Source of the DNA: Escherichia coli
Lineage (GTDB): Bacteria; Pseudomonadota; Gammaproteobacteria; Enterobacterales; Enterobacteriaceae
DNA: 64,000 nucleotides
Reading direction: 5' to 3' (one strand)
NCBI RefSeq assembly: GCF_041248615.1
Contig: NZ_CP158426.1
The notes under the pieces are model-generated. The model had not been told where the DNA came from and ran no database searches. It was given only the letters and a program-made list of their open reading frames with translations. Positions 6,659 through 58,553 of this stretch are shown piece after piece (the first letter of the stretch is position 1; every line of letters begins with the position of its first letter). The translations under genes were made by a program, and so were the position numbers.

Positions 6659-6814
6659 TAAGTACAATAAAAACAGCATGTTAGCTTGCAATCATAGTTC
6701 AAATTTTTCCAGGATTTTCCTTGTTTCTACAGCTGTTTGGTAAGACAATTAGCGTTTGAATTTTTCGGATTTGGCACGAGTGGGTTACGCTCGTCACATC
6801 GTGGAAATGTACGC

Positions 6815-6853
6815 AGTACTCTGGTAGCTGTTAAGCCAGGGGCGGTAGCGTGC
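6815..6853 (+). promoter_or_regulatory. JUMPstart element with ops (RfaH-dependent antitermination) site upstream of the O-antigen operon
   Basis: agtactctggtagctgttaagccaggggcggtagcgtg; ops core GGCGGTAGCGTG at 6841-6852. Confidence 0.75.
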
Positions 6854-32294: not shown

Positions 32295-32333
32295 AATAAA
32301 AAAGCCCCCGGAAGGTGATCTTCCGGGGGCTTT
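32295..32333 (-). terminator. his operon attenuator terminator hairpin
   Basis: GC-rich inverted repeat agcccccggaag/cttccgggggct followed (minus strand) by a U-run; lies between hisL and hisG. Confidence 0.8.
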
Positions 32334-32394
32334 CTCATGCGTTCATGCACCACTGGAAGATCTGAATGTCTTCCAGCACACATCGCCTGAAAGA

Positions 32395-32445
32395 CTAGTC
32401 AGGATGATGGTGATGATGGTGGTGTTTAAATTGAACGCGTGTCAT
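32395..32445 (-). CDS. hisL: his operon leader peptide HisL (MTRVQFKHHHHHHHPD)
   Basis: Minus-strand reading atgacacgcgttcaatttaaacaccaccatcatcaccatcatcctgactag: seven consecutive His codons. Confidence 0.9.
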   Translation of the reverse strand: MTRVQFKHHHHHHHPD

Positions 32446-35112: not shown

Positions 35113-35198
35113 AGAAAAATTATTATGACAAGCCTCTCATTCTCTTGTCATTTCCCCCCCATTTAGGCACAATGCGCCGCTGTCAAAAAATGACTAAA

Positions 35199-35230
35199 AA
35201 CCGACGTTTCATCAGCGTCGGTTATTTTTT
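35199..35230 (+). terminator. Putative terminator after yeeY
   Basis: accgacg tttcatcag cgtcggt hairpin followed by tattttttg. Confidence 0.5.
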
Positions 35231-35372
35231 GCTTCAAACCAATCATTCATACCAAGAGGCCGGGCTTCGTACCGGATAGATATTTACTAAAAATCGACAG
35301 TTGTTGTCGCTGAGGAATCCAAAAAAATGGGGCAATTTTTTGCTTACGCGACGGTTATCACCGTAAAGGAGA

Positions 35373-43510: not shown

Positions 43511-43954
43511 TTAGCGACAGCCTTCTTCTGTATGCAGCAAGGCAAAAAGTTCTGCAACTCCATTGTTATTAACCGCACTGGTTACTAACACATTGTGCGC
43601 TCCAGCTTCCCGTAACCAACTTTTCACCAAAGATATTTGTTCCATGCTGGCTAAATCTGCTTTGGTGACTACTCCAATGACCGGGCGATTCATTGACGAG
43701 GTAAAGCCTGGCGAAAAAGGGGACCACGGTGCGTCCGCATTAAGCACCAGGGCGATAATGTCCGCTTCGCAGGCGCTGACCAACAGAGCACTGTAGAGGC
43801 TGCGGTTTTCGAGGTATTCGCCTGGTGTATCAATGGTGGTCGGGGACCAGACGATTGCCTGCGTTTTCTGATAATGAATATTTTCGCCACGCAGACATTG
43901 CGTGAGTGACGTTTTTCCGCACTGGCTGGGGCCGATGAGCATCATACGTTGCAT
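43511..43954 (-). CDS. pduV: Propanediol utilisation GTPase PduV (EutP/PduV family)
   Basis: 147-aa ORF with P-loop [10 protein letters not shown]; last gene of pdu operon here. Confidence 0.85.
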
Positions 43955-51131: not shown

Positions 51132-51554
51132 CTACTCCCCTCGCTTATTGGCGTACAGGCAAAGTGAGCGGGGCTCACCTTTTTGCCGCTGACATGCCGG
51201 GTCAAGACACAAATTACAACTGATAATCTCTGAGGTGACGGTTGTTGCTGGTGTTTTGCTTGTTTCAACCGTCACGGTCAATGCTTCAATTGTGTGGGGC
51301 AGAATGCCGTCTCCCGGGCGGGCAATCACTTTGTGTGCGACAAGGCCATTTCGCTGTCCGGCGAAACTGGCTCCCGTCGCGATCGCCGCATTAACCGAGG
51401 CGACGTCACCGGTGATTTTGATGAGCGTCCAGCCTGAGCCATTGGTCTTCTCAAGGCCAACCAGCGTGATGGACGCGGCTTTTGCCATAGCGTCTGCGCA
51501 ACTGATGGCGAGAGCCAGACCACTGACTTCAAGTAATCCCAGTGATTGCTTCAC
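51132..51554 (-). CDS. pduK: Microcompartment shell protein PduK (BMC domain with Cys-rich C-terminal tail)
   Basis: 140-aa ORF, N-terminal BMC domain (MKQSLGLLEVSGLALAISCADAMAKAASI), C-terminal CNLCLDPAC. Confidence 0.85.
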   Translation of the reverse strand: MKQSLGLLEVSGLALAISCADAMAKAASITLVGLEKTNGSGWTLIKITGDVASVNAAIATGASFAGQRNGLVAHKVIARPGDGILPHTIEALTVTVETSKTPATTVTSEIISCNLCLDPACQRQKGEPRSLCLYANKRGE

Positions 51555-51577
51555 GCTGTGCTCCTTAGCGAATGGGG

Positions 51578-51853
51578 TTATGCTGATTTAGGTAAAATAG
51601 CCTCAACATCACTGTGTGGGCGCGGGATGACATGGCAGGATTTCACTTCGCCAACGGCGCTTGCGGCGGCGCTTCCTGCATCAACGGCGGCTTTTACTGC
51701 GCCAACATCGCCACGGACCATCACCGTAATCAGACCCGAACCAATCTTTTCATAGCCAACCAGCTGCACGTTGGCGGATTTAACCATGGCATCTGCAGCT
51801 TCAATTGCGCCAACTAACCCTTTTGTTTCAACCAGTCCTAGTGCGTTGTTCAT
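51578..51853 (-). CDS. pduJ: Microcompartment shell protein PduJ (BMC hexamer)
   Basis: 91-aa [32 protein letters not shown]. Confidence 0.9.
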
Positions 51854-55265: not shown

Positions 55266-56930
55266 TTAGTCAATTTCGTTGGGATCAAGTGCACCGGGAA
55301 TATTTTTGATCTCTTCCCAGCGTTCCCCTTGCAGGCGGTAACCTGTAGCCGGTCCGGCGTAATCATTGACGTCATTGACCGCAGAGAGCACTTGTCCGTC
55401 ATCGACGATGATGGCTGAGGTATGGAGATAATCGCCGGTCAGTTTTGCTTTTTGCATGTTGAGCATGTCTTGGGCGACATCGGTAAAACCGCCTTGCGCC
55501 AGGGCTTTCACCACTTCCAGGCTGTTCCGGTTTTTATTGATAATCTCCTGGGCGAACTTGATGTCTTCCACAATATTGCGCTCAGGCATATCTTTTGAAC
55601 CGTGGGCATAGGTTGCCGCTTCGACTTCTTCATCGGTAATAGGCGGTAGTCCCATACCGGCAAAGACAGCCTGTAAAGCGCGAGCGGCTTTATTGCGGAT
55701 AGCGATAACATCTTCTTCGCGTACTGGTCGCAGGCCGCCATCAACCTTCAGGTCACGCTGAATGACGTTGTAATCATCGAAGTCTTCAGCATCTTCGTTT
55801 GAACCAGCAAACATGTTGTCGTAGTTCGGCACAGCGGAAAAACCGGAAGAGATAAAGTCGGTACCTGGCAGAAACTGCATCAGGAAACGTGCGGTACGGC
55901 GCATATCCGAGTGGGTAAAGGTCTGGTCATTACTGGAGGCGCATTCCAGATCCAGCGATGAGCAAATTAAGTTTTCCGCTAATACTGCGCGGATGCCTGA
56001 TGGCACAGCCGATGGAACACCGATGCAGCTTACCGAACCATTCTGTAGACCCTGAACTCCTGCGGCTTTGGTGATGTAAATGCAACGAGCCTCGAGATAA
56101 AGCATTGATTTGCCTTCCGCGTAACCCATCTGTACTTCAGAGCCGGAGCCGGAAGTAAAGCGCATTTTTAAGCCGCGAGACGCATAGGATGACGCGAGAA
56201 ATCCTTTTGACCACGGGGTGTCATCGCCATCGGTGAAAACAGGTTCTGTACCATAGACAGAAATTGTTTCGGCGTAACAGGTGTGGCCTAACATACCGAG
56301 TTTCAGTTCGGTGGCTTCTTCCAGTGAACACTGGGTCAAGACGCCCGGACGTCCCACCTGTGAGCCGACCAGCAGGGCGATGGCGTTGAACGGGGCATAG
56401 CGAGCAACGGCAACGGTGGTTTCCTGTTCATCAAACCCGCGCCATGCGCCTTCAGCTGCGTCGGCGGCAATTTGTACCGGGTTATCTTTGACGTTGGTGA
56501 CGTGAGCCTGTTGTGATGGTGTTCGACGGGCGCGCATTTTCTGCATCGCCATCATCATCTCTACCACGTTCATCTGCGAAACAACTTCGACGATTTTTGC
56601 AGGCGTCATTGCTGTGGTAAGGGGAACGATATCGCTACGTTTGACATTTGGATCGCACAACATATTGGCAAGTTTTACCGAATCCATCGCGATGACTTCT
56701 TCTGCACGCGCGAGATTGATGCCGTAGCGGGCGATAAAGTGGTCGATCAGGTCAAACTGGCTGGCGGGTTTTCCATCCAGTTCGGTAACGACGCCGTTAA
56801 CAATTTTGATTGACGGTTTAGGATCGTTCGGGCTTTCCATCGCAATGAAGCCTTCTTCAATCCACTCTTTAACGAAACCGTCCTGGTTGACCGGGCGTTT
56901 TGCCAGTGCTTCAAATCTTTTCGATCTCAT
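55266..56930 (-). CDS. pduC: B12-dependent propanediol dehydratase large (alpha) subunit PduC
   Basis: 554-aa ORF MRSKRFEALAKRPVNQDGFVKEWIEEGFIAMESPNDPKPSIK recognised. Confidence 0.92.
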   Translation of the reverse strand: MRSKRFEALAKRPVNQDGFVKEWIEEGFIAMESPNDPKPSIKIVNGVVTELDGKPASQFDLIDHFIARYGINLARAEEVIAMDSVKLANMLCDPNVKRSDIVPLTTAMTPAKIVEVVSQMNVVEMMMAMQKMRARRTPSQQAHVTNVKDNPVQIAADAAEGAWRGFDEQETTVAVARYAPFNAIALLVGSQVGRPGVLTQCSLEEATELKLGMLGHTCYAETISVYGTEPVFTDGDDTPWSKGFLASSYASRGLKMRFTSGSGSEVQMGYAEGKSMLYLEARCIYITKAAGVQGLQNGSVSCIGVPSAVPSGIRAVLAENLICSSLDLECASSNDQTFTHSDMRRTARFLMQFLPGTDFISSGFSAVPNYDNMFAGSNEDAEDFDDYNVIQRDLKVDGGLRPVREEDVIAIRNKAARALQAVFAGMGLPPITDEEVEAATYAHGSKDMPERNIVEDIKFAQEIINKNRNSLEVVKALAQGGFTDVAQDMLNMQKAKLTGDYLHTSAIIVDDGQVLSAVNDVNDYAGPATGYRLQGERWEEIKNIPGALDPNEID

Positions 56931-56948
56931 AAATCTGCCTCAGAGAAT

Positions 56949-57761
56949 TCAGATGTAGGAAGGGCGATCGTTTTTCGGTGTATCGCCGAGAGTCGAAAGC
57001 ACGGTTTTACCGATTTCGCGTGCGGAGATGACCGCCTGGCGGACTGCGCCGGAGTCACCCGAGATAATCAGAATGACTTCATTGCTGTAGCTGGTGCCTT
57101 GAGCGGGGGAGCTGTATGCCACAACATCCACATTGGCGGACTTCAGCGCGGTGTCTGCCATCAGAACACCCACAGCAGCCGGAGCGCCGACAATAACGCC
57201 GCAAGCCCGTCCCAATGGTGCACCAAACGCTTTTTCCAGTGCATAGCTGGCGCGGGCGGTATATTGCAGCTCAAGATGTCCGGCTTCGTTGGCATAGACA
57301 TCGCCAAAGGTTCGATCGAGTTCTTTCAGGGCAACTTCAATACCGCGTTTCACGTCGGAAACATCGTTGCCACCTAAGAGGATCAATGAGCCGTGTCCGG
57401 CACCGCCTTTAGTATCGCGAGGAAGTTCAATGCTAATAACTTCAGTGTTGGTGGCTTTTACCGCTTCATCAGCGGCCATAATGTGTGGACCTGCGCCAAT
57501 ACGCGCACCCAGAATGCCAATGGAACGATAGCGTTTTTCAAGTTTCATTGCGTCCAACAGGGCGCTATCAACGTTCGCAATGACCAGACCTACAGTGTCG
57601 CCAATAGCGGTGCCAACAAATTCTGTTAATGTGCAGCTTTTTTCTGCCATAGCCGTCTCTCGTATTTGATGAGTGGTTTTCGGGAGAACCTCATGCTCTG
57701 GCGTCGCTACGCGAGCGATGACCTGCGCCATGATCTGTTCGACCAGTTCATTGCTGCTCAT
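56949..57761 (-). CDS. pduB: Microcompartment shell protein PduB (tandem BMC trimer); internal in-frame start for PduB' at 57650
   Basis: 270-aa ORF; internal Met at codon 38 ([13 protein letters not shown]) matches the known PduB' start. Confidence 0.9.
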
Positions 57762-58042
57762 GGGTTAATTCCCTTTGGTAAGATTTTTTCGACATCGGTA
57801 TGTGGGCGGGGAATAACATGTACGGCTTTTACTTCGCCGACGTTACGCGCAGCTGCGGCACCTGCGTCTGTTGCCGCTTTTACCGCCCCGACATCACCAC
57901 GAACGATGACGGTCACCAGCCCGGAACCTATTTTTTCGTAGCCGACCAGCAAAACATTTGCCGACTTCACCATGGCGTCTGCGGCCTCTATGGCGGCAGT
58001 TAAGCCTTTGGTTTCTACCATTCCTAACGCTTCTTGTTGCAT
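57758..58042 (-). CDS. pduA: Major microcompartment shell protein PduA (BMC hexamer)
   Basis: 94-aa [33 protein letters not shown]. Confidence 0.92.
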
Positions 58043-58553
58043 AAAGACCTCGCCTGGATTTTTTTGACGATATGACTATAAAAAAAAGCGAGGAAAAAGA
58101 ATGGCTGACTTAATCGGCTAATGAGAAAAATTAATAGAGAACAAATATTATAAAATTGCTTTTATGAACTATATGTTGTTAATTTATTAGTTGTTTTGTG
58201 GATATTTCAATGTGAATTAATTGCGTTGGCTAGTGAGTTTAATCGCGAGTAATATTTCGTTGAGTTTAGTTCGAGGAAGGAACTGTGATATTTGTTTCAA
58301 TTTTATTATATCATGATGGCAATTTTTTATTGTGAAAGTTTGACAGTAATTATTACTTTCAACACTGATTAACGCTGTGTTGCATGATTCGGCAATGACA
58401 ATAATTTGTTATGTTAGCACGATTTTTACACGAGTCTGTCATGCATGTTGGCAATATTTTCTGCAGAGCAATTTTTTATAGTTGCGCTCGGTATACACAA
58501 CAATCAGCGCATAGTTGGCTGATAAAGAAAAACTCCGTAAAGAAGGTGTCACT
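58043..58553. promoter_or_regulatory. AT-rich divergent control region between pduA (minus) and pduF (plus); expected pdu and pduF-pocR promoters
   Basis: About 510 bp non-coding, strongly AT-rich with multiple A/T tracts; in the Salmonella pdu/cob regulon this region holds PocR-, Crp- and ArcA-responsive promoters. Confidence 0.55.

Follow-up and report, generated by a model that had tools for sequence, protein, structure and literature searches.

Two in-frame translation starts in pduB of an Escherichia coli pdu island, probable origins of the shell proteins PduB and PduB'

The PduB/PduB' system of Salmonella and Citrobacter

The Salmonella gene pduB has two initiation sites: the first overlaps the stop codon of pduA, and the second is found 111 bp further downstream in the same frame (PMC3836489, citing Havemann & Bobik 2003). 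Expression of Salmonella pduAB in E. coli gave two forms of the protein (PMC3836489). PduB' is the product of the alternative translation start; C. freundii shells contain 31% PduB' and 18% PduB, and those from recombinant E. coli 28% and 24%, respectively (PMC5109269). In strain LT2, PduB' was removed by replacing the internal start codon with GCT (PMC9132943). The PduB/PduB' pair determines attachment of the Pdu microcompartment shell to its enzyme core. Residues 1-37 of PduB, which are conserved in Escherichia, link shell and core (PMC9132943). In the Salmonella protein residues 1-22 form an amphipathic helix that resembles a signal sequence and targets GFP to microcompartments, and residues 23-37 are a linker (PMC11463388).

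The dual start of PduB and PduB' is already known, for Escherichia too at the level of sequence conservation, and finding it again adds no new biology. The pduB genes of Salmonella and Citrobacter have been shown to give both isoforms, also when placed in E. coli hosts. A literature search found no experiment on isoforms produced from the native E. coli pdu allele and no explicit description of the ribosome binding site of PduB'. The additions made here are modest: a footprint at synonymous sites, the fixation of a rare CGA codon and a gradient between clades that runs from GGAGG through GAGG to GAGA in front of the internal start. The idea that this start is a retained ancestral one also goes beyond the literature and is speculative.

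The pdu island of E. coli

The window analysed is a stretch of 64,000 nucleotides of the E. coli chromosome (contig NZ_CP158426.1, assembly GCF_041248615.1) that includes a pdu island. The full-length coding sequence of pduB (56949-57761, minus strand) has 270 codons plus stop in the list of open reading frames. It lies directly after pduA (57758-58042, minus strand), coding for a BMC-H shell protein of 94 amino acids, and is followed by the genes of diol dehydratase, pduCDE, in an operon with pocR and pduF. The assignment of pduA follows from the same list and from the way RefSeq annotates an E. coli locus with 100% identity, which is a full pdu island composed of pocR, pduF and, divergently, pduABCDE-GH-JKLMNOPQSTUV. 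The pduA-pduB stretch is 100% identical in several complete E. coli chromosomes, where the two genes bear these names, and is present in 642 of the 5426 complete genomes of the species. About 12% of complete E. coli genomes are pdu-positive. The adherent-invasive NRG 857C is one such strain and has an identical PduB protein.

The product of pduB is PduB, a BMC-T shell protein of the Pdu microcompartment with tandem permuted BMC domains. It scores 474.4 bits against the NCBIfam PduB equivalog NF011944 (cut-off 173) over residues 3-270 and 397.7 bits against TIGR04501 (cut-off 310) over residues 46-270. Pfam PF00936 matches it in two stretches, corresponding to two BMC domains in one chain, and two beta-alpha-beta repeats are seen in the AlphaFold2 model, which was built on 31 homologs. 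L. reuteri PduB (4FAY, E=1.8e-79) and EtuB (3IO0, E=2.8e-79) also match, in alignments that begin at residues 40 and 44 of the query.

Gene order (pocR, pduF, divergent pduA-pduB-pduCDE) and the PduB length of 270 amino acids are the same as in Salmonella and Citrobacter. The E. coli island differs from theirs in ending at pduV and in having only cobUST after the B12 riboswitch. In the window segment 43015-43954 the operon terminates with pduV (43511-43954, minus strand) and is directly followed by yeeX/tmaR; pduW and pduX, which follow pduV in Salmonella, are both absent here. At the other side, positions 60572-63912 hold a cobalamin riboswitch (Rfam, 109 bits), a small ORF (60896-61402) that is hypothetical in RefSeq, and then cobU, cobS and cobT, at a place presumably occupied in Salmonella by the long cbi operon. 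If that operon indeed has this place in Salmonella, the present E. coli has retained the pdu genes that depend on B12 but, of B12 synthesis, only the salvage end.

Several further elements are found in the window. The intergenic region between pduF and pocR contains a match to the enterobacterial small RNA STnc230 (59422-59505, minus strand; Rfam, 71 bits for a gathering score of 50) that is antisense to the direction of both genes. A JUMPstart element (6814-6852, plus strand) precedes a presumed O-antigen/polysaccharide gene cluster, and a histidine operon leader and an STnc240 small RNA match are present at 32296-32419 (minus strand) and 35158-35232 (plus strand). The last three are ordinary E. 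coli landmarks and they place the pdu island in the his-sbcB-cobUST region.

The internal start codon and its conservation

The first ATG of pduB (57761-57759) overlaps the TGA stop codon of pduA in the sequence ATGA (57761-57758), and the last codons of pduA hold its Shine-Dalgarno (SD) sequence. Codon 38 is a second, in-frame ATG (57648-57650, minus strand) located 111 nt downstream. The sequence-only reading of this DNA had reported a methionine at codon 38, with its peptide and coordinates, and the residue count of the ORF and the position of the ATG agree with it. Its assignment to the Salmonella-type two-isoform arrangement is borne out by a start that overlaps the pduA stop and an in-frame ATG 111 nt further on, the disposition described for Salmonella (PMC3836489). 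Initiation at codon 38 would yield PduB' (56949-57650, minus strand), a protein of 233 amino acids plus stop that, from the structure and TIGR04501 alignments, comprises the BMC-T core without the amino-terminal extension.

Comparison with Salmonella PduB, the check proposed in that reading, gives an ungapped alignment with 91% identity in which Met38 falls on Met38 (S. enterica subsp. diarizonae). A contig of S. enterica subsp. enterica has exactly this DNA sequence from -15 to +19 of the internal ATG, and residues 1-22, the helix region, are also identical to S. enterica. Linker residues 22-33 differ, S. enterica having QQAIPGQPQPI.

The expectation that the internal methionine is conserved also held over a much wider set of genomes. 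Orthologs were collected from 80 genome loci of distinct species, the TEFVG/GAGP landmarks were located in 77 of them, and a methionine is found 7-8 codons before TEFVG in all 77. When the query is aligned with its 120 best database matches, 103 of the 121 rows have M in the codon-38 column and several more have it one column off. The sequence CGAGAnACGGCTATGGC is kept in strains E24377A and NRG 857C, in the divergent E. coli strain 48, in Citrobacter and in Yersinia, whereas what lies just upstream diverges freely among the alleles and linker codons 26-33 are hypervariable.

E. coli strain 48, one of the 642 pdu-positive genomes, carries a clearly divergent pduB allele (locus L084, NZ_CP166879.1, 5244359-5245210). 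Near the internal start its identity is ~90% and its linker sequence differs, but CGAGAAACGGCTATGGC is still present in it. This divergence suggests that its pdu island was separately acquired.

Distant homologs that have the amino-terminal helix and extension (P0124, P0125, P0127, P0131 and others) show no methionine at the boundary. They come from a 50%-identity representative search of proteins. Their lack of a boundary methionine makes the dual-start design appear specific to the Pdu-type PduB clade. Within Sodalis, the second pduB copy of Sodalis sp. dw_96 (L056) has the internal methionine without an SD-like motif (-3.2 kcal/mol), and the Sodalis-like paralogs P0081 ('...AASVVRNSC') and P0100 ('...EPAIPRKLC') have no methionine there. 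The three may be natural single-isoform variants.

The amino-terminal extension

In the AlphaFold2 model of PduB, residues 3-19 form a helix, residues 19-43 are modelled with low confidence (pLDDT < 50) and the BMC-T fold begins at residue 46. The predicted helix (codons 3-19; 57705-57755, minus strand) is amphipathic and resembles an encapsulation peptide (PMC11463388). The linker that follows (codons 20-37; 57651-57704, minus strand) is predicted to be disordered on the basis of pLDDT and of the variability of codons 26-33, and ends in a conserved R-E-T-A. The longer amino-terminal extension noted earlier is accordingly present, as residues 1-37 with the predicted helix and the low-confidence linker. 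Met38 lies within the predicted disordered linker just ahead of the tandem BMC fold, a location that provides no obvious structural reason for its conservation.

An amphipathic helix followed by a disordered linker is likewise found in the encapsulation peptides or signal sequences of the Pdu enzymes (PduD, PduP, PduL) and in PduM; the amino terminus of PduD, encoded in the same window, resembles residues 3-19 of PduB plus linker. Unlike the cargo-borne peptides of PduD, PduP and PduL, that of PduB is attached to a shell tile, and the internal start would let the cell make this tile with or without the peptide.

Short-form PduB and EtuB proteins (4FAY, 3IO0 and a protein of Veillonella) share the tandem permuted BMC fold, their alignments starting at residues 40-44 of the query, but lack the extension and exist as a single isoform. 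Their only start codon aligns with or near the internal methionine and is preceded by a canonical SD. In a group of uncultured Veillonella (L072) the short pduB of 237 amino acids has GGAGGG before the ATG that aligns with the internal methionine, and this homologous ATG is its only start.

Shine-Dalgarno sequences of the two starts

The sequence immediately upstream of the internal ATG at 57650 reads ATACGAGAGACGGCT. It includes CGAGAG (codons Arg34-Glu35; 57657-57662, minus strand), which provides a weak SD-like GAGAG at -11 to -7. Measured as duplex energy with the anti-SD, SD strength here reaches at best -3.0 kcal/mol, through pairing of the GAG core of GAGAG with the 16S 3' end, a value equalled or bettered by 31% of all pduB positions. 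The first start has the SD-like AAGGGA at -14 to -9 (57770-57775, minus strand; -5.3 kcal/mol), inside the pduA coding sequence, and AAGGGA or AAAGGA is conserved at this place across enteric loci. The search for an SD upstream of 57650 suggested by the sequence-only reading therefore has a mixed outcome: a purine-rich GAGAG is there, but its strength is indistinguishable from the background of the gene. SD strength in a single sequence was for this reason rejected as sole argument. A further in-frame methionine, Met11 (57731), was discarded as a candidate start, being inside the helix and without SD (-2.2).

The weakness of GAGAG, together with other in-frame ATGs of pduB that score similarly or better, fits an alternative in which pduB gives one protein of 270 amino acids, with Met38 as an ordinary conserved residue, and the internal ATG, lacking a real SD, is unused in E. 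coli. Such a residue would however sit in a disordered linker outside the solved fold, amid hypervariable upstream neighbours, with the nucleotides around it fixed even at synonymous sites. The same -15 to +19 sequence gives PduB' in Salmonella, also upon expression in E. coli, and the distant N-extended homologs, presumably single-isoform, are devoid of an equivalent of Met38. We regard this alternative as very improbable.

The motif found before the internal ATG varies between clades as an SD would. Enterobacteriaceae-like loci have CGA-GAR/GAT, with mean energies of -3.0 kcal/mol for the internal start and -5.3 kcal/mol for Met1. In other Gammaproteobacteria (Vibrio, Aeromonas, Tolumonas, Sodalis) the codons are CGA-GGC or AGA-GGT, which contain GAGG, and the means are -6.1 and -5.6 kcal/mol, respectively. 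Firmicutes (Listeria, Enterococcus, Veillonella, Bacillaceae) have GGA-GGN or AAA-GGA-G, that is GGAGG or AAGGAG, with means of -8.9 kcal/mol (internal) and -6.8 kcal/mol (Met1). In the clades with GAGG or GGAGG the internal SD is as strong as that of Met1 or stronger. The role of GAGAG as putative SD of PduB' is supported by this homology to GAGG/GGAGG and by synonymous-site conservation, not by a canonical motif.

Synonymous constraint and mRNA structure around Met38

Synonymous diversity was computed in windows of 7 codons over 43 unique enteric pduB sequences. In the entire gene diversity is lowest in the windows that begin at codons 42, 32, 41, 33, 2, 43, 1 and 40, all of which flank one or the other of the two start codons. 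A block of strong constraint, delimited by these windows and by fixed rare codons, spans -12 to +27 of the internal ATG (57624-57662, minus strand) and is read as the probable translation initiation region of PduB'. Arg34 is encoded by CGA in 42 of the 43 sequences (AGA in the other), a codon used for 2.6% of the arginines elsewhere in pduB. Ala37 is always GCT (41/41; 11% of alanine codons elsewhere), Ser44 always AGT (36/36; 8% of serine codons) and Leu45 always TTA (43/43; 7.8% of leucine codons); the sequences are related and these counts are not independent, the other columns of the alignment serving as a partial control. The fixation of rare codons at positions 43-46 is tentatively attributed to selection against mRNA structure.

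Codons 43-46 correspond to 57624-57635 in the window, and ACG46 is found in 38 of the 43 enteric orthologs. The E. coli strain studied here departs from AGT (Ser) at codon 44, where it has ACA (Thr).

Codons 27-38 are the zone of weakest structure of pduB. Among the 43 orthologs the mean minimum free energy (MFE) of 40-nt segments is -1.5 to -4.4 there against a gene mean of -8.75 ± 2.7, GC3 is at its lowest (0.29-0.39 against 0.60) and codon 38 ranks 14th of 257 for weak 40-nt MFE. In the window itself the value at Met38 is -4.3, to be compared with -3.4 to -4.5 at the starts of pduA, pduB and pduC and with a gene mean of -7.5. Accessibility calculated with RNAplfold for -15 to +9 is unremarkable at Met38, since 31% of pduB positions are as accessible or more; by this measure the real starts and the internal site are all in the middle of the distribution.

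Synonymous conservation extends to +27 (TTA45, ACG46), slightly past the typical 30S footprint, and could reflect something additional. Conservation of codons 32-48 might then be due not to an initiation region but to another overlapping element, such as a small RNA or antisense target, an mRNA stability element or an internal promoter, the last finding an echo in the wording 'pduB' gene promoter' used in PMC9132943. On neither strand did a scan of 56800-58600 detect a sigma-70-like promoter or a terminator in pduA or the 5' part of pduB; its two promoter-like matches both fall between pduA and pduF, in the intergenic region upstream of pduA. No Rfam family matches the internal start site, and the search for conserved RNA structure around Met38 gave no convincing helix (RNAalifold -1.6 to -9.8, for single-sequence MFEs of -10 to -39). 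The only other spot of pduB under comparable constraint is the first start codon, and the variation of the purine motif between clades is that of an SD. An element of another kind is thus a highly unlikely cause of the conservation.

Synthesis of two PduB isoforms from one gene

We favour, with a probability of about 0.9, the reading that translation of a single segment of pduB mRNA from two in-frame initiation sites gives two isoforms of the shell protein. It is very likely that this E. coli makes both PduB and PduB', because the anatomy of the locus and the constraint found here combine with the Salmonella and Citrobacter literature on their production and function. PduB (270 amino acids) would be started at the ATG at 57761 with AAGGGA ahead of it, and the overlap of this codon with the pduA stop (ATGA) means that its translation can be coupled to that of pduA. 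PduB' (233 amino acids) would arise from independent internal initiation at the ATG at 57650, a site with only the weak SD GAGAG. This start is placed in what is predicted to be the least structured and most AT-rich part of the gene, and the A-rich codons GCA GAA AAA follow it. Generation of the short form by proteolytic removal of the extension, to which the predicted disorder of the linker could give a protease access, is scarcely credible, as construction of the LT2 strain devoid of PduB' required only that GCT replace the internal start codon (PMC9132943), a protease site is not expected to impose nucleotide-level constraint that includes rare synonymous codons, and a canonical GGAGG precedes the homologous ATG in Firmicutes.

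Both isoforms should contain the complete tandem BMC fold and form the predicted pseudo-hexameric trimers in the shell. The amphipathic helix (residues 3-19), borne by a disordered linker of ~20 residues, would be confined to PduB. As the extension tethers the shell to the enzyme core in Salmonella, the ratio between the two starts should set the number of tethers per facet, and we infer that the PduB:PduB' ratio tunes tether density.

The internal start is possibly an ancestral one, retained from a short-form BMC-T gene upstream of which an extension similar to encapsulation peptides was grafted. Three observations fit such an origin: the homologous ATG, with GGAGG, is the sole start of short-form pduB genes; it persists in N-extended Pdu-type PduB, with the SD embedded in Gly-Gly, Arg-Gly or Arg-Glu codons; and more distant N-extended homologs have lost the ATG. 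If the start is indeed ancestral, the SD of Enterobacteriaceae might have decayed to a fixed GAGA, which the rare CGA codon holds in place within a stretch that is AT-rich and unstructured. This would suggest that selection tunes the PduB:PduB' ratio, and with it tether density, by way of the nucleotides and not of the protein sequence.

With the initiation region of Salmonella preserved as it is in the E. coli allele, findings and engineering rules obtained with Salmonella (M38 mutants, deletion of residues 1-37) should transfer to it directly. The difference between a weak, codon-locked SD in enterics and a canonical GGAGG in Firmicutes offers a possible handle for engineering isoform ratios.

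The start codon of pduK

A minor observation concerns another start codon of the same operon. Between the pduJ stop and the pduK start (51552-51580, minus strand) the window reads CCCCATTCGCTAAGGAGCACAGC-GTG after the TAA of pduJ. Salmonella has an ATG 3 bp after the pduJ stop, and a GUG start was nevertheless considered more likely for PduK (PMC3836489). That ATG is absent from this E. coli, in which no in-frame ATG, GTG or TTG occurs between the pduJ stop and the pduK GTG in 51552-51580. The canonical TAAGGAG precedes the GTG, and with no start codon upstream of it the pduJ-pduK junction favours the GUG start of PduK.
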